This document shows positions 6,311 to 44,210 of a DNA stretch of 64,000 nt, in pieces. The notes beneath the pieces were generated by a model, which was given only the letters and a program-made list of their open reading frames with translations, was not told the DNA's origin and ran no database searches. The first letter of the stretch is position 1, and every line of letters begins with the position of its first letter. The DNA comes from Pelagibacteraceae bacterium AG-337-G06 (GTDB lineage Bacteria; Pseudomonadota; Alphaproteobacteria; Pelagibacterales; AG-422-B15), in contig QBZX01000007.1 in the NCBI GenBank assembly GCA_003282175.1, positions 4,144-68,143 on the forward strand. Reading direction: 5' to 3'. The position numbers were made by a program, and so were the translations under genes.

Positions 6311-7069
6311 TTATGTAAGATCTTTTACAAGTTCATAACTCTTTAAAAACCAGTCACTTTCAGGGAAATTAAATTGAAGAGTTGCTGCGTATCTCTTCGC
6401 TTCTTCATTAAGACCAAGTGAATAATATATTTCTACTAGCCTATGTAGTGCTTCCTCAGTATAAATTGATGTTTTATATTCATCTAAAATATTATTGTAT
6501 CTGTTTATTGCCGATATCCATTGATGATTAAATTGATAATATCTTGCAATCTCCATTTCTTTTGCAGCAAGCCTGTCATTTATAATATCTATTCTAATTA
6601 ATGCATCACTCGCAAATTCTGATTCTGGAAACTTATTTATAACTTCATTAAAAGCTCTTTTAGCTTTAGTTGTAGTTGTTTGATCTCTTTCTACATCGCT
6701 TATCTGCTCAAAATAATTTAATGCTCTTAGGTAGTAGGCGTAAGAGATTTTTTTGCTACCTGGGTATAATGCTATAAATCTCTCAAGCGCATCCAAACTA
6801 TCATTATACATGTTTGATTTGTAATAACAAAACCCAGACATTAATTGAGCTTGGTTTGACCATTTTGAGTAGGGGTATTGTCTTTCAATGTCTTCAAATA
6901 AAATAGCAGCATCAACGAAGTCCCTTTTTTTTACAAGTTCCATTGCATTGTTATATAGAACTTGCAGCTTTTCACCCTCTGTTTCTGGCATCATGAGTTT
7001 AGTATCTGAGCACGCAGTGAAAATTAGTAAAAACGCTATTAAAGAAGCATGAGCTTTTAGATTAAACAT
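6311..7069 (-). CDS. bamD: Outer membrane protein assembly factor BamD (lipoprotein)
   Basis: Lipobox LIFTAC, TPR helices, YPYSKWS, ERDQ, EMEIARYY, EALHRLVE. Start moved to ATG 7069 because the longer track ORF overlaps lpxC. Confidence 0.92.
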   Translation of the reverse strand: MFNLKAHASLIAFLLIFTACSDTKLMMPETEGEKLQVLYNNAMELVKKRDFVDAAILFEDIERQYPYSKWSNQAQLMSGFCYYKSNMYNDSLDALERFIALYPGSKKISYAYYLRALNYFEQISDVERDQTTTTKAKRAFNEVINKFPESEFASDALIRIDIINDRLAAKEMEIARYYQFNHQWISAINRYNNILDEYKTSIYTEEALHRLVEIYYSLGLNEEAKRYAATLQFNFPESDWFLKSYELVKDLT

Positions 7070-7121
7070 CAAATTTGATTTTAATGGAAATTTATTAAGA
7101 TTAAAGTGTAAATCTAATGAT

Positions 7122-8051
7122 TTAAATTGACGCTGAAAGCACTTTTTTATGGTTTGTGGTCGAGAACGAGAATTTATCATAATCATCATTCTCATCAACA
7201 AGTTTCCAATTAGATTTGTCAGACATAATTAATTTAGCAAGTTCGTGAGTAAGCCTATGCCCCCCTTTAAATATTTCAAAGGAACCTTGCACCCTATGCC
7301 CCAATAGGTATATGTCGCCAATGAAATCCAAAACCTTGTGTCTTACAAACTCGTTATCATATCTAAGTGCTGACTTATTCATAATTCCTTCATTATCAAG
7401 GACTATCGCATTTTCAAGAGACCCACCAGCTATAAGTCCTTTATCCTTAAGTAAATCAACTTCGTCTTTGAATCCAAATGTTCTGCTATTACTAATAATA
7501 GTTGTATAATTATATTCTGTATCTAACTCAAAATTAAATTTTTGCTCTTTGATCAGTTTATGTTCATAAACTATAGTATAATTAATTAACGTATTATATG
7601 CTGGTGTAACTTTAATATAACTATCGTCATCTCTAAAAATAATTGGACGATTAATCTTCATAATTTTTCGTTTTGAATTTAAATTCTTAATTCCTACACT
7701 TTTAATTTTCATCACGTAATCTAAAGAGCTACCATCTAGGATTGGAAGCTCTGAATTATCTATCTCAACAATTGCGTTATCTATTCCTAATCCATAGAAA
7801 GCCGACATTAGATGCTCTATGGTTGATACAGAATGACCAAATTCATTTGATATTTTTGTACACAACTCAGAAATTTCAACATATTCAATATTTGCTTTTA
7901 CAATACTTTCATTGTGTGGCACTTTTAAGTCTGTGCGTTTGAAAAGTATCCCTGTATTTGGGGGTGCAGGATTAACTTTCATACTACTCGTCTCTCCACT
8001 ATGCAAAGTGATACCAGATAATTTAAAATACTTTTTGAGAGTTTTTTGCAT
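7122..8051 (-). CDS. lpxC: UDP-3-O-acyl-GlcNAc deacetylase
   Basis: GITLHSG, STIEHLMSA, SRTFGF, GGSLENAIV, RHKVLDFIGD, GGH motifs. Confidence 0.96.
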   Translation of the reverse strand: MQKTLKKYFKLSGITLHSGETSSMKVNPAPPNTGILFKRTDLKVPHNESIVKANIEYVEISELCTKISNEFGHSVSTIEHLMSAFYGLGIDNAIVEIDNSELPILDGSSLDYVMKIKSVGIKNLNSKRKIMKINRPIIFRDDDSYIKVTPAYNTLINYTIVYEHKLIKEQKFNFELDTEYNYTTIISNSRTFGFKDEVDLLKDKGLIAGGSLENAIVLDNEGIMNKSALRYDNEFVRHKVLDFIGDIYLLGHRVQGSFEIFKGGHRLTHELAKLIMSDKSNWKLVDENDDYDKFSFSTTNHKKVLSASI

Positions 8052-8119: not shown

Positions 8120-9310
8120 TTATAAGTTTTGAAAAAATTTATAAATTATTGATAATATTGAATTTTTTTTCTTTTTGCTATCACTTATCTCACCCTCTAA
8201 ATCATGGTTTGTTGCGTAAGCAAGTAATCCAAAGCTTGAAGTCAGTGAAGGATTGTCAATAAATGTCTTAGAGCCATTTATTTTTCTGGTAGATCCTAAT
8301 CTAAATGATGAATTAGCAAATTTAGCTCTTATTAGTTTTTGAATAGTAATTGATTTTGCTCCATATCCTGTAAGTAATACTGAATTTAAAACTAATGAAT
8401 TAAATCGTGTCTCAGTTGCTGTCATTGATACCAATTTAGCTAGTTCTTCAGCACGAGATAAATAAATTTCATAATATTTTTCAAGTTCTTTGTCGCGCTT
8501 CTTATCTCTATCAAAAATGTCAATCTTCTTTCTAATATTTTCAGCTTCTTCAAGAGTAAGACACTTTATTTGAGATATATCATTAGTAAAATGAAAAGTT
8601 CCAATTTTTATAATATCAAATCCAATCAATTGACCATCAAACGTATAAGACAAAACAGTTTTATTTTTCCGCACTTCAATGGTTATTGCGCCTAGGTCCG
8701 ACTCTTCTTCACTTAAAACTGCTAAACTTGTTGAATAATTACTAGAGACGATTTGCTTTAAATTTAGACCCATTTCTTGAAATGTTTTATATATTGTTTC
8801 AAGATAATTTTTAGAAACTGATATTACATGCCATTTTGTAAGAAGATTATCGGCCTTCATTCCTATTGGATCTGATACACTTTTTCTGTTGTCAATGCGA
8901 TAGCTAATTGGAAAAGAATGTAATGGTTCTTTAAGTTTTGTATATAAACTTGTAAATAATTTAGAATTAAAGAAGGCTTTTATATCAGTTTCTAAAATTA
9001 CGTTGTCCTTGCTCATAATATTAAAATCAATATATTCTGATGACATATTTTCAGAAATACTAACAAAAACATCTGATATTTTTACGCTAGCCTCATATTC
9101 AGCCTTCGAAATTGCGCTTTCAATATAATTACTGATTTGTGCATGAGGCAGAGAGAGTGGCTTAGTGCAATCAATTGGCATTTTTGAAATGCCGATACCT
9201 ATTAATTGAAGAATTTTTTTCCTATTTATAATTTCTAATTCTTGAGCAATTAAACAAATTATCTTATCAGAGCGTATGTCAATTGCACTTAAAATATTTC
9301 TTTGTGACAT
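8120..9310 (-). CDS. ftsA: Cell division protein FtsA, highly divergent
   Basis: Follows ftsQ with a TGATG overlap. N-terminal IDIRSDKIICLIA, DPIGM, HFTNDIS, SRAEEL, LLTGYGA and a C-terminal amphipathic helix. ATP-binding glycines are replaced. Confidence 0.85.
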   Translation of the reverse strand: MSQRNILSAIDIRSDKIICLIAQELEIINRKKILQLIGIGISKMPIDCTKPLSLPHAQISNYIESAISKAEYEASVKISDVFVSISENMSSEYIDFNIMSKDNVILETDIKAFFNSKLFTSLYTKLKEPLHSFPISYRIDNRKSVSDPIGMKADNLLTKWHVISVSKNYLETIYKTFQEMGLNLKQIVSSNYSTSLAVLSEEESDLGAITIEVRKNKTVLSYTFDGQLIGFDIIKIGTFHFTNDISQIKCLTLEEAENIRKKIDIFDRDKKRDKELEKYYEIYLSRAEELAKLVSMTATETRFNSLVLNSVLLTGYGAKSITIQKLIRAKFANSSFRLGSTRKINGSKTFIDNPSLTSSFGLLAYATNHDLEGEISDSKKKKNSILSIIYKFFQNL

Positions 9311-10047
9311 CAGATATCGTTTATACCATAATTAATCTTTCCTTCATCTACTCTTAAAGATGCCCTTCCTTCAATTCTTAAGTCAATTTCAATTATATTG
9401 CTCTGTAATACTTTTTCTTCGATAAATAAGTTCTTAAGGTTTTTAAGTGCATTATCTACTTTTGAATCAGGTAGTTTTATTAATAAATTATTTTTTAAAG
9501 TTAAATTCCATCTTCTTTTCTCAACAAAATCTAATTTACTTAATTGTGAAATAAGCTCATGAAAATGAATATTTAACTCCTTAATAAGGCCTTTAAGGGC
9601 CGATGGAGATTCGTCGCCTGAAATAATAATAAAGTTTTCAAGTTCATAGTCTTTATTTTTTTCAGTAATGATTGTTCCGTCAATATCTAAAAGATAATAT
9701 TTATCTTTATCTCTTAAAATTGCATATGGTTCATTTTCAATAATATCTAATACTAATGAGGATGGATAAATTTTTTTTAAATTTACTCTCTTGATCCATT
9801 TTTCTTGCTCAATAATCTCTTTAATCTTATGTAAATCCAAAGATAATAAATCAGAAGTATGATTATATATTTCTTCTTTAATTATACTTATATTTGATTT
9901 TTCTGAACCATTAATCTTTATGTGATTTAACAAAAAATATTTTGAGGCTAAGCTTGGAAAGTAATATATTGATACTGATATTGATAAAAGAAATATAATT
10001 AATATTGCACACACAATATTTATATATTTAACGGTTTGTTCCTGCAT
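9310..10047 (-). CDS. ftsQ: Cell division protein FtsQ/DivIB
   Basis: N-terminal TM, POTRA domain, RRWNL, IDLRIEGR; 20-bp overlap with ddl. Confidence 0.9.
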   Translation of the reverse strand: MQEQTVKYINIVCAILIIFLLSISVSIYYFPSLASKYFLLNHIKINGSEKSNISIIKEEIYNHTSDLLSLDLHKIKEIIEQEKWIKRVNLKKIYPSSLVLDIIENEPYAILRDKDKYYLLDIDGTIITEKNKDYELENFIIISGDESPSALKGLIKELNIHFHELISQLSKLDFVEKRRWNLTLKNNLLIKLPDSKVDNALKNLKNLFIEEKVLQSNIIEIDLRIEGRASLRVDEGKINYGINDI

Positions 10048-22762: not shown

Positions 22763-23682
22763 GATTGTTTAAATCCCAAATCTTCAATTGGTATATAACT
22801 AAATTCTAAATTATTCTTCTCATAGAATCTTAACTTAGCTGATCTAGATCTTGAATTATGTTCTATCTCTTCTTTGCTAGGTTTGAGAACTTTATTCAAT
22901 TTATTGTTTTGACTTACTATTTTTAAAAACTTTTTCACTAGTCTATCTTCAAGAGAATGAAAGGTAACTACATGCAAATTTCCATTTTTTTCTAAATATT
23001 TTAGTGCGTGATTAAGTCCGGAATGTAATTCTTCAATTTCGTTATTGATATAGATTCTTAAAGCTTGAAAAGTTTTAGTCGCAGGGTGTTTTTTATAATA
23101 TTTATTTGGAAAAGATTTCCTTACTACTTCTGCCAATTCTAAAGTTGTTTCAATATTTTTTGATTTGCGATAATTTTCAATTTCTCGAGCAATCCTCCTT
23201 GAGTTTCGCTCATCACCATAATAATAAATAATATCAGCTAATTCTGCGTGACTTTTTGAATTTACTACATCATAGGCAGTTGTACCTTTTTGACCCATTC
23301 GCATGTCTAACGGACCCTCTTTAATAAAAGAAAAGCCTCTTTCTGGAAAATCTAACTGCATTGATGAAACTCCTATATCAAATAAGAAACCGTTAATTTT
23401 TTTTTCCTTGGTTTTCTCCATAACTTCGTTAATTTGGCTAAATTTAGAATGGAAAAAATTGAACCTTTTGCCGTATTTTTTTTTAAATTCTCTAGCAATC
23501 TGTTTAGCATATGGATCCCTGTCAATTGCAATAATATTGCAGTTACTGACCTCAAGAAATTCTTTCGAGTACCCTCCATTTCCAAATGTTGCATCGAAGT
23601 AAGTCTCATTATCTTTAGGCCCAGTTAGTTTTATTATCTCCTTTATAAGAACTGGCTTATGAGCCAATTCTTTTTTTGTCAT
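22759..23682 (-). CDS. rsmH: 16S rRNA m4C1402 methyltransferase RsmH (MraW)
   Basis: [46 protein letters not shown]. Confidence 0.96.
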
Positions 23683-25205
23683 TTACTCTGTCTTCTAAGG
23701 AATGAAGGAATTTCTAACAGATCCTGATCAGTTTCATTTTCTTCAGTCAATTCTTCATCTTTAGGATCGTTCATATCGTCTAATTGATGAATATTTGGAC
23801 CGCTAAATAGATCAGGTGCATCTAACTCATCATTTTCTCTATTAGCATTTATCAGATCCATAATGCTATTAGGAGCTTCTTCCTCAGTGACCATCTCAGG
23901 CTCAGTAATTGGCTCTGGCTCAACTTCTTCTGCAGCCACCATTTCTGGTTCTGATATTTCTGGCTCAGTAATTGGCTCTGGCTCAGCTTCTTCTGAAGCC
24001 ACCATTTCTGGTTCTATCATAACTGCCGTATCTTCAAGATCAGTTTCAGAGTGAATATCAGAGTCTTCTCCATCCATGAACATATATGGATCAGAATTCT
24101 CTTTTACTTCTTCATTCGTATCTTCGTTACTAATTGAAGCTTGTATTGAATTTGAAGTTGCTGCTGGTGTAGCGGCAATTGATGATGCTGCTGAATTTCT
24201 TGTAATTTGTAAATCTACAATTGATTTAGTTGGCTTTGGATGTGAGTCTAGTCCCGTAGCTACAACAGAAACTCTTGCCTTACCCTCAAGTTTATCATCA
24301 AAAATTGATCCTACTATTACATCTGCATCTGGATGAACCTGCTCGCGTATCTCATTTGTAATTTTATCAACTTCATGAAGTGTAAGATCAGTCCCACCTG
24401 TTATATTAATAAGGAGTCCTTTAGCTCCATCAAGTGAATAGTCATCCAGTAATGGATTCGTTACAGCATTATGGGCACATTCAATAGCTCTATTTTCACC
24501 AGAAGCTTCTCCTGTTCCCATCATTGCGCGACCCATATTGTTCATGATAGTTTTAACATCTGCAAAATCTAAATTTATTAGACCAGGAACTACCATTAAA
24601 TCTGTAATACTTCTTACTCCTGCATGTAAAACATCATCCGCCATTGAAAAAGCATCTGCAAAAGTTGTTTTTTCATCAGCAACTTTGAATAAGTTTTGGT
24701 TTGGTATAACAATTGTCGTATCAACTAGATGCTCTAACTCTTTAAGACCTTGCTCAGCAATACGCATTCTTCCAGCGCCTTCAAATTGAAATGGTTTTGT
24801 AACAACTGCGACAGTTAGGATTCCCAATTCTTTAGCTACTCTTGCTATTACTGGTGCAGCACCAGTCCCGGTACCACCGCCCATGCCTGCTGTGATGAAA
24901 AGCATATTTGTTCCCTCTAAACGTTCCATGATTTCATGCTTAGTTTCATCAGCTGAAGATTTTCCAATATCAGGATGTGATCCTGCGCCTAGACCTTTTG
25001 TTACTTGAACTCCTAGTTGCATCTTTGAGTCACTTAATGATTTTGAAAGAGCTTGTGCATCCGTATTTGCCGCCACAAACTCAACACCTGACAAACCTGA
25101 GTCAATCATATTGTTAATTGCATTACCGCCTGCACCACCGACTCCAAATACAGTTATCTTAGGTTTAAGTTCTTTTAGTTCTGGAACGCTTAAATTTAAA
25201 ACCAT
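23679..25205 (-). CDS. ftsZ: Cell division protein FtsZ with long acidic linker
   Basis: [18 protein letters not shown] tubulin signature, NLDFAD, C-terminal peptide [10 protein letters not shown]; SD AGGAGG 9 nt upstream of ATG. Confidence 0.98.
23899..24015. repeat. Direct repeat in the ftsZ linker: 2 x 54 bp, 63-bp period
   Basis: ggctcagtaattggctctggctca(a/g)cttcttctg(c/a)agccaccatttctggttct at 23899-23952 and 23962-24015, 2 mismatches; encodes EPEMVA(S/A)EE(A/V)EPEPITEP. Confidence 0.92.
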
Positions 25206-25230: not shown

Positions 25231-25683
25231 TTATTGATTACTCCATTTGAGATTTGCTAAATTATTCTTTGCACTATTTGTTATATCTTTTTTATAGTCC
25301 TCATATGAAGTCGGATTCCACATTTGAAATGTCTCGCCCATGCCTACAAATGAAACTTGATCAATAATTCCCGCTGATACAATTAATTCACCAGGTATTA
25401 TTACTCTACCGTCTTGATCAAAATGAATTTGATGACTATCTGCAAATATAGAAGATGAAAAAGTATTTCTTTCTTCACTGAAAGGTCCAGCAGATTCAAT
25501 TGCATCACTTATTTTTTGCATTCTATTAATTGCACACCCTTCAATTGATTGAAGAGTTGGTGAAGGGTAACAAATCATCCCCTTAAGGCCATTTTGTTCA
25601 AGTACACTTCTGAATGATGAAGGTACTGAAACACGACCTTTCTTGTCTATGCGATTAATATAGGTAGATAGAAACAGCGCCAT
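25231..25683 (-). CDS. mraZ: Division/cell wall cluster transcriptional regulator MraZ
   Basis: MALFLSTYINRIDKKGRVSVP, DQDGRVIIP, FVGMGETFQMW. ATG 25683 chosen; a TTG at 25716 behind GAGGT is an alternative start. Confidence 0.94.
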   Translation of the reverse strand: MALFLSTYINRIDKKGRVSVPSSFRSVLEQNGLKGMICYPSPTLQSIEGCAINRMQKISDAIESAGPFSEERNTFSSSIFADSHQIHFDQDGRVIIPGELIVSAGIIDQVSFVGMGETFQMWNPTSYEDYKKDITNSAKNNLANLKWSNQ

Positions 25684-25730
25684 GTTATAAAAAAAGTTAG
25701 TTATTAAAATAATCAACAAATTACCTCGTT

Positions 25731-25775: not shown

Positions 25776-25878
25776 AATGTCTATAGCTTTTTTTCGAATT
25801 GTTATATTTTTCAGCAGCTTATAGGATAATTCACTTTAAGCAAATTTAATAAGTTATTGAAAATAAATAGATATAAAA

Positions 25879-26234
25879 TTGCCAGATAATCTATAAGCCG
25901 GGTTCTGTGATTTAATAAAAATCAATGACTATTCATCTAGTTCGAGTGTTACCACACGAATCATGCGATCAACCCAGTTACAGCCAAGACTAACTATTGT
26001 AACTCTATTTGATCTTGCTCCTGGTGGGGTTTACCGTGCCTTTTTTGTTACCAAAAAAGCGGTGAGCTCTTACCTCACCTTTTCACCCTTACCTTATAAA
26101 TTTCAATTAAGGCGGTTTATTTTCTGCGGCACTTTCCCTGGGGTCACCCCCGCCGGGTATTACCCGGCACCATTGTCTTGTGGAGCCCGGACTTTCCTCT
26201 TTACAAGTAAAGCAGTCATCCAATTATCTGGCAA
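25879..26234 (-). ncRNA. rnpB: RNase P RNA (type A)
   Basis: Minus strand has GAGGAAAGTCCGGGCTC, AGTGCCGCAGAAA, GGTAAACCCCAC and ACAGAACCCGGCTTATA; 12-bp P1 helix TTGCCAGATAAT/ATTATCTGGCAA; usual position between amidase and mraZ. Confidence 0.96.
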
Positions 26235-26249
26235 ATACCATTTATAGTC

Positions 26250-44133: not shown

Positions 44134-44210
44134 TGGTGGGCCCACTAGGACTCGAACCTAGGACAACTCCGTTATGAGCGGAGGGCTCTAACCAACTGAG
44201 CTATGGGCCC
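44134..44210 (-). tRNA. tRNA-Ile2 (CAU anticodon, lysidine-modified)
   Basis: GGGCCCATAGCTCAGTTGGTTAGAGCCCTCCGCTCATAACGGAGTTGTCCTAGGTTCGAGTCCTAGTGGGCCCACCA. G1:C72 rules out the initiator; C4:G69 and C5:G68 are TilS determinants; CCA is encoded. Confidence 0.9.

Follow-up and report, generated by a model that had tools for sequence, protein, structure and literature searches.

In Escherichia coli, the substitutions that inactivate the actin-like cell division protein FtsA map mostly to its ATP site (PMC5832921); an E14R protein is non-functional and D210 is reported to be critical (PMC8897712). ATP drives FtsA polymerisation and membrane remodelling in vitro (PMC8897712), and ATPγS acted like ATP in a reconstituted FtsA system (PMC9098913). 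The role of ATP in FtsA is still unsettled. Here we analysed the ftsA gene of Pelagibacteraceae bacterium AG-337-G06, a member of SAR11 (Pelagibacterales), in a window (the whole stretch of DNA that was analysed) of 64,000 nucleotides (nt) taken from assembly GCA_003282175.1, contig QBZX01000007.1, positions 4,144 to 68,143 of the forward strand. Its product is FtsA by descent and fold, yet at the sequence level it does not show the biochemical hallmark of the family, since the superfamily motifs (phosphate-1 DxG[ST]xxK, phosphate-2 DxG...T and adenosine GG) are not matched.

8120..9310, minus strand: ftsA orthologue of the SAR11 type, an intact open reading frame of 396 amino acids (aa)

The window gene is a functional ftsA orthologue of a SAR11 cell, and the orthology is secure because matches to the FtsA fold and family coincide with a conserved position directly after ftsQ. 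The top PDB sequence matches of the window protein were FtsA proteins (E = 2e-16), and a Pfam scan matched residues 100-163 to SHS2_FTSA (PF02491) with 33 bits, above the cut-off of 25.4. An AlphaFold model, computed from an 87-sequence alignment (A3), reached a predicted local distance difference test (pLDDT) score of 88.5 and a predicted template-modelling score (pTM) of 0.86; in Foldseek it gave template-modelling (TM) scores of 0.77-0.86 to the FtsA proteins of V. maritimus, E. coli and T. maritima and of only ~0.6 to PilM. The ATG of ftsA and the stop codon of ftsQ share one base (...ATC TGATG TCA), in line with the first-pass annotation of this DNA, made from the letters alone, which had described an intact frame coupled to ftsQ. 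ftsA also directly follows ftsQ in further loci (L014-L018 and L021), an arrangement that holds in every lineage examined, and 12 loci from named genomes with 82-83% aa identity to the query all belonged to Pelagibacteraceae or Pelagibacterales single-amplified or metagenome-assembled genomes. A tblastn search with E. coli FtsA found no second FtsA-like gene in the window. Three family models scored below their curated cut-offs (TIGR01174, 162.4 bits against 175.85; PF14450, 30.6 against 31.8; NF007009, 83.7 against 409), which is a matter of annotation thresholds and no biological feature.

To locate the nucleotide-binding elements, we aligned the window protein with E. coli FtsA (from NC_000913) and canonical FtsAs, which picked out four replaced segments.

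9260..9283, minus strand: former phosphate-1 loop IDIRSDKI, residues 10-17; R13 stands at E. coli G16, which is 99% conserved
9137..9193, minus strand: residues 40-58, GISKMPIDCTKPLSLPHAQ, which by alignment supplant the canonical G-x-G-xxx-S-x-G-xx-x-G-x-[IV]
8654..8680, minus strand: former phosphate-2 loop IEVRKNKTV, residues 211-219; R214 stands at E. coli G212, which is 100% conserved
8351..8374, minus strand: former adenosine motif LTGYGAKS, residues 313-320; Y316 stands at E. coli G337, which is 98% conserved

At phosphate-1 the window reads IDIRSDK where E. coli reads LEIGTAK, so that D11 corresponds to E14, R13 to G16 and K16 to K19; D11, I12, R13 and D15 are invariant among 72 family members. 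At the adenosine motif, LTGYGAK stands against LTGGAAQ, with G315 equivalent to G336 and Y316 to G337, and the family as a whole reads TG[YK]G[AS]KS. Residues 40-58 align with E. coli GVGSCPSRGMDKGGVND and contain MPIDCTKPL where E. coli has SRGMDKGGV (canonical S-x-G-xxx-G-x-V); C48 of this segment is invariant in the family. The first-pass annotation had called phosphate-1 (DIRS) and the adenosine motif (TGYGA) degenerate and the RG.K.G segment missing, and the alignment bears out all three. In the AlphaFold model, residues 13-15 and 214-217 form the loops of two beta-hairpins, as expected of the phosphate motifs, and residues 315/316 lie at a strand-to-helix junction, the expected place of the adenosine motif.

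Phosphate-2 is a more qualified case. The window reads IEVRKNKT against E. coli VDIGGGTM, which pairs E212 with D210 and R214 with G212; the family varies as [DE][IV][QRG]KxxT, with K215 and T218 invariant in the SAR11 lineage of the window protein (lineage A, below). EVRKNK is a string found in the window alone, close relatives carry EVQKNK(T), and deep members of the family keep the first glycine (DIGKTKT, DIGKNFT). The same loop reads DIGEDVT in S. aureus FtsA (PDB 3wqt/3wqu, entries with AMPPNP and ATP) and NLGYNFT in T. maritima FtsA (PDB 1e4g, ATP form). Because these ATP-crystallised proteins vary at the second and third glycines, changes there are uninformative, and judged from the sequences only the first glycine is diagnostic in FtsA; the textbook DxGGGT does not apply to the family past that residue. 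The earlier description of this loop as degenerate thus stands for the loss of the first glycine in the window and falls for the DxGGGT pattern used to judge it, which was too strict. By alignment, phosphate-2 is degenerate in part of the clade only, including the window (EVRKNKT) and a second SAR11 lineage, lineage B (DLNYYKT), and the case for lost ATP binding stands mainly on phosphate-1 and the adenosine motif.

We then asked where conservation had been lost in an unbiased column scan of 71 lineage-A, 19 lineage-B and 153 canonical FtsAs, the canonical set being E. coli FtsA and the nearest representatives from two database searches. At a threshold of at least 80% conservation in the canonical set, 43 columns qualified. 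Both SAR11 lineages retain 23 of these, including R300, E303, the 1C residues H129/P132/D138/P146, D242, T335, G336, R357 and G381 (E. coli numbering), and 10 are gone from both, among them G16 (99%), G212 (100%) and G337 (98%). As the three most invariant glycines are among the ten lost columns, the erosion, on this comparison, centres on the nucleotide loops and is not evenly distributed.

The elements outside the pocket through which FtsA would meet FtsZ, the membrane and later division proteins were located in the same way.

8474..8521, minus strand: shortened 2B connector, residues 264-279, with an alignment gap opposite E. coli 277-292
8438..8464, minus strand: YLSRAEELA, putative docking helix for FtsZ (its C-terminal peptide); the pair R286/E289 is equivalent to E. 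coli R300/E303
8819..9055, minus strand: 1C (SHS2) subdomain, residues 86-164, retained; PF02491 matches residues 100-163
8123..8161, minus strand: C-terminal amphipathic helix SILSIIYKFFQNL, presumed to target the membrane; helix 385-395 in the model, after a disordered linker

E. coli FtsA residues 277-292 (VPSVGGRPPRSLQRQT, including R286) have no counterpart in the window protein. We take them, following the naming in the first-pass annotation, to be the S12-S13 hairpin. In the predicted 2B subdomain, helix 253-264 leads through a loop at 265-273 into helix 274-300 with no hairpin, which agrees with the shortening that had been noticed ahead of SRAEEL; this connector is the least conserved stretch of the protein (column identity 0.44). 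SRAEEL itself was said to be kept, and its R286/E289 pair shows no variation among the 87 sequences of A3, with 97% conservation in canonical FtsAs. That E. coli R300 contacts the FtsZ peptide is presumed here, following the first-pass annotation; a literature search on R300E found nothing. The C-terminal helix, likewise described as retained, has a hydrophobic moment of 0.61, compared with 0.57 for the E. coli helix and 0.24 ± 0.12 for shuffles, 0.2% of which exceed it, and it is conserved across both lineages. In subdomain 1C, H131, P134 and P148 are kept in both lineages, and D140 is the lineage consensus (51% in lineage A). This subdomain is described as needed for the recruitment of FtsQ and FtsN (PMC4281207), and it is retained; the earlier proposal that the protein acts mainly as a tether is not supported.

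The altered protein is under strong purifying selection and is not decaying. Across the window and 12 SAR11 genomes (13 in all, 78 pairs, NG86 method), the median ratio of nonsynonymous to synonymous substitution rates (dN/dS) of ftsA was 0.107, far from the value of 1 that the first-pass annotation had set beforehand as the mark of a decaying gene, and the neighbouring genes gave 0.159 (ftsQ), 0.094 (lpxC), 0.119 (ddl) and 0.130 (murB). No indel occurred in ftsA among the 13 genomes. In sequencing runs the window genotype was found in metagenomes only; one metatranscriptome held a few low-depth contigs of 90-95% likeness covering ftsA 8374-8698, a weak hint of ftsA transcription from which operon structure is unreadable.

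The same form of FtsA extends through the order. A word-indexed search returned 98 relatives; they measure 393-396 aa and reach down to 42% identity, and canonical FtsAs come next at 22-26%. In a profile search of 1.84 billion representatives, the SAR11 family (lineage A) scored 658 bits, P0116 (393 aa) from another lineage 332 bits and canonical FtsAs, after a clear drop, 178 bits or less. This other lineage, lineage B (P0116/P0358), also belongs to Pelagibacterales and is ~35% identical to the window protein. Its loops read LQIDHNS, LDLNYYKT and LTGEGAK and have lost the phosphate-1 aspartate and lysine as well, so that it is the more eroded of the two. It shares the 277-292 deletion, the Arg/Glu pair and a similar C-terminal helix, and its AlphaFold model is equally FtsA-like (pLDDT 85.7), again without a hairpin or strands between the two 2B helices. 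Two lineage-B copies (NCBI MDC3263383.1 and P0378) are named, one "hypothetical protein" and the other "cell division FtsA domain-containing protein", in keeping with scores below the family thresholds, and surveys of SAR11 gene content may count too few ftsA genes.

Within lineage A the three former motif loops have column conservations of 0.85, 0.76 and 0.86 against a protein average of 0.66. The replacement residues are conserved within each lineage and different between the two. The loops thus appear, from these patterns, to be constrained as structure and not as an ATP site. On the simplest reading of the alignments, the ancestor of the order would have lost the phosphate-1 and adenosine glycines together with the 2B segment, the first phosphate-2 glycine would have gone later, and each lineage would then have fixed its own packing solution for the empty cleft.

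A few FtsAs from marine metagenomes outside SAR11 also have partly eroded motifs. P0238 reads LTGKSSE; P0170 reads LDLGNNK, IDFGYKST and LAGNGSQ; and P0262 reads VDFGDRVT and ITGQGSL. Some other non-SAR11 FtsAs, such as P0156 and P0234, are without the 2B hairpin. Judged by sequence, SAR11 may not be alone in having an eroded nucleotide site in FtsA.

The window, with a guanine-plus-cytosine (G+C) content of ~30%, carries ftsA in a gap-free minus-strand division and cell wall (dcw) cluster with the order mraZ-ftsZ-rsmH-ftsL-ftsI-murE-murF-mraY-murD-ftsW-murG-murC-murB-ddl-ftsQ-ftsA-lpxC-bamD-like-ligA.

9310..10047, minus strand: ftsQ, whose stop overlaps the ftsA start by 1 nt
7122..8051, minus strand: lpxC, 68 nt after ftsA, where E. 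coli has ftsZ
23679..25205, minus strand: ftsZ, 508 aa, 52.5% identical to E. coli FtsZ by tblastn, between mraZ and rsmH
25231..25719, minus strand: mraZ, first gene of the cluster; Pfam MraZ found on the homologues in L019 and L020
22759..23682, minus strand: rsmH (mraW), with a 4-nt overlap with the ftsZ stop; Methyltransf_5 found in L019 and L020
23682..23723, minus strand: FtsZ's conserved C-terminal peptide, presumed ligand of the FtsA 2B site; E. coli reads DYLDIPAFLRKQAD

ftsZ does not follow ftsA, lpxC does; ftsZ lies ~14 kb upstream on the same strand, 25 nt after mraZ. The first-pass annotation had taken ftsZ to be transcriptionally separated from ftsA, and the gene layout does not support this, as ftsZ stands at the head of the same gap-free cluster on the same strand. 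A promoter scan of the cluster gave fewer promoter-like sites than shuffles did and in this AT-rich genome is uninformative on transcription units; minus-strand terminator-like matches within the cluster amounted to two weak ones, inside mraY. The order mraZ-ftsZ-rsmH-ftsL-ftsI is the same in L019 and L020 and is found in three Pelagibacterales lineages in all, the order ftsQ-ftsA-lpxC-bamD-ligA is repeated in other Pelagibacterales lineages, and one 51,316-bp contig holds the relocated ftsZ together with a lineage-B ftsA. Motif loss and the move of ftsZ, whose co-occurrence the first-pass annotation had proposed to test, do co-occur, but as a single event in one clade the association has no statistical weight. 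Our literature search returned no paper linking FtsA motifs, or dcw order or the term "dcw", to SAR11 or Pelagibacter.

Across SAR11 FtsZ matches the C-terminal peptide reads [DL]LEIP[AS]FLRRQSK. In its C-terminal half (23679-24200, minus strand) the window FtsZ has a long and strongly acidic linker whose peptide repeats are imperfect, and no tandem repeats were detected in this linker at the DNA level; linker length is highly variable in SAR11, with proteins of 477-605 aa among full-length matches. Elsewhere in the window, a bacterial class A RNase P RNA (324 bits) at 25878-26231 (minus strand), directly upstream of mraZ, accounts for a local rise in G+C, and a 94-aa plus-strand frame across it (25963-26247) is spurious. 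The bamD-like frame (6311-7201, minus strand) has a TTG start at 7201 that makes it overlap the end of lpxC by 80 nt; its true start is probably more downstream, as the homologues in L014 and L017 have 253-254 aa compared with 296 aa here. A single tRNA gene (69 bits) lies at 44137-44210 (minus strand).

Taking the pocket, the partner sites and the selection data together, we consider that SAR11 FtsA probably no longer binds or hydrolyses ATP and would work as a nucleotide-independent adaptor that tethers FtsZ and recruits later proteins. This would be the most economical reading because the pocket glycines are replaced and residues 277-292 are gone, while selection is strong and the FtsZ-binding pair and the membrane helix are kept. 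Bulky or charged side chains now occupy the glycine positions of phosphate-1, the adenosine motif and, in most lineages, phosphate-2; FtsZ filaments would be anchored to the membrane through the retained C-terminal helix and the 2B site, and later divisome proteins would presumably be recruited through 1C.

R286W-type alleles of E. coli ftsA lower self-interaction and bypass ZipA and FtsEX (PMC9098913, PMC5832921), and SAR11 pangenomes are reported to be without ZipA, FtsE, MinC, MipZ and SepF (bioRxiv 10.1101/2025.06.25.661606); FtsA is not discussed in that 2025 cell-cycle preprint or its supplements. One residue of the missing segment is described as placed at, or close to, the interface between FtsA subunits, so that SAR11 FtsA may associate with itself less than usual, as E. 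coli FtsA* (R286W) does. Removal of the R286-bearing segment might, tentatively, lower self-interaction and so mimic FtsA*, and such a lowering would be in line with SAR11 reportedly having neither ZipA nor FtsE. A further speculation, possible though on balance doubtful, is that the protein is a "locked-on" FtsA, with a cleft plugged in lineage A by its own R13, D15, K215 and Y316 (other residues would do so in lineage B) and a deleted interface segment, constitutively active, with little or no polymerisation and no ATP cycle. If this were true, the change might have let the order drop FtsEX, dispense with ZipA and shift ftsZ to the front of the dcw cluster, and ATP binding and regulated polymerisation would be dispensable for the core job of FtsA.

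Several points weigh against an ATP-independent FtsA. The loss of binding is argued from the motif logic of the actin/Hsp70/sugar-kinase superfamily, phosphate-2 varies naturally in ATP-crystallised FtsAs, and deep lineage-A members keep its D-x-G. D11, K16, E/D212 and T218 persist in lineage A. The new arginine and lysine residues of the loops could in principle contact phosphates, and their strong conservation would also fit a new ligand. With regard to the deleted segment, the S12-S13 strands of E. coli FtsA are described as essential for FtsZ interaction and recruitment (PMC4281207), and the argument from R286 to self-interaction is indirect. Finally, the loss of the pocket, the move of ftsZ and the gene losses together constitute one evolutionary event.

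Two alternatives would remove the question altogether by denying that the gene is a working ftsA. The idea that it encodes a PilM-like or other actin-fold paralogue that happens to lie beside ftsQ is close to untenable: a weak match to TIGR01175 (PilM; E = 0.001) points that way, but its 18.2 bits compare with a cut-off of 133, the FtsA-specific SHS2 insert of 1C is present by Pfam, the TM scores favour FtsA over PilM, ftsA keeps its place next to ftsQ in the dcw cluster in every lineage examined, and no further FtsA-like gene turned up in the window by tblastn. We rejected the PilM assignment on its low TIGR01175 score, its neighbours ftsQ and lpxC and its low TM score. A decaying or dispensable relic, with another protein tethering FtsZ, is very improbable. 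It could appeal to the scores under the TIGR01174 and PF14450 cut-offs and to the lineage-B copy called hypothetical at NCBI, but dN/dS is on par with that of the essential neighbours, no indels occur, length stays within 393-396 aa, conservation of the gene reaches across the order down to ~35% identity, and its start is translationally coupled to ftsQ. Both AlphaFold models are confident, and conservation holds for the FtsZ site as well as for the FtsZ peptide. This pseudogene reading, already largely refuted by the low dN/dS, the lack of indels and the conserved sites, was rejected.

Two others accept a functional FtsA and dispute the empty cleft. The strongest rival holds that ATP or another nucleotide is still bound in a non-canonical geometry, with R13, K215 and K217 replacing the backbone-amide contacts to the phosphates. 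It would accommodate three facts: lineage A still has D11, K16, E/D212 and T218, conservation of its loop residues is strong, and phosphate-2 is already loose in ATP-crystallised FtsAs. This rival is weakened by lineage B, which is without such basic residues and has lost the phosphate-1 aspartate and lysine but keeps the fold, the synteny and the partner sites; moreover, the second adenosine glycine (98% conserved) has become Y, K or E, which should fill the adenosine pocket. Overall we regard this reading as unlikely. It is improbable that the cleft now serves to bind a partner peptide or some other small molecule, with FtsA acting as a sensor in cells without the usual division regulators. 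The conservation of two former loops (0.85 and 0.86, against the average of 0.66) and the reported absence of Min, MipZ, FtsE and ZipA from SAR11 would suit such a role, but lineages A and B have entirely different cleft residues, so that a single conserved ligand is hard to reconcile with them, and positive evidence of any ligand was not found.

SAR11 comprises the ocean's most abundant bacteria, and its FtsA, without the nucleotide-binding glycines and strongly selected, is a natural protein that makes the role of ATP directly testable, the order as a whole being a natural experiment on what a nucleotide-free FtsA could do. The altered FtsA may also be linked mechanistically to the lack of FtsE, ZipA, Min and MipZ reported for SAR11, and possibly to the stress-induced failure of cell division observed in the 2025 SAR11 preprint (bioRxiv 10.1101/2025.06.25.661606).

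Compared with canonical FtsA structures (7q6d, 7q6f/7q6i, 1e4g/4a2a and 3wqu), SAR11 FtsA shares the actin-like fold and 1C (TM 0.7-0.86), the position after ftsQ, the 2B Arg/Glu pair and the C-terminal helix behind a flexible linker, at only 20-24% identity. It differs in that R, R/Q and Y stand in for the pocket glycines, other residues take the place of S-x-G-xxx-G-x-V and 277-292 is deleted; its gene also departs from the usual, not universal, arrangement in which ftsZ follows ftsA. E. coli FtsA* (R286W) and related alleles resemble it in that R286 is altered or absent, SAR11 lacking the whole R286 segment, and these alleles bypass ZipA and FtsEX much as SAR11 is reported to be without zipA and ftsE; however, they are point mutants with an intact ATP site and a full divisome, whereas the SAR11 protein combines a segment deletion with loss of the nucleotide site as judged from its motifs. 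The laboratory deletion of S12-S13 from E. coli FtsA removes the same structural element, but in SAR11 its loss is fixed and selected across an entire order. Rico and co-workers are said to have found in 2004 that the deleted protein still bound FtsZ and was not fully functional. PilM (5eou, 2ych), of the same superfamily and the nearest structural neighbour outside FtsA, stands apart with a TM score of ~0.6 and nucleotide-bound solved entries, and SAR11 ftsA has no pilN/O neighbours. A nucleotide-free member of the actin/Hsp70/sugar-kinase fold is known in TsaB/YeaZ, a scaffold that has lost the phosphate and adenosine motifs; its function is unrelated to that of FtsA, being that of a TsaD partner in tRNA modification with no cytoskeletal or membrane-tethering role.

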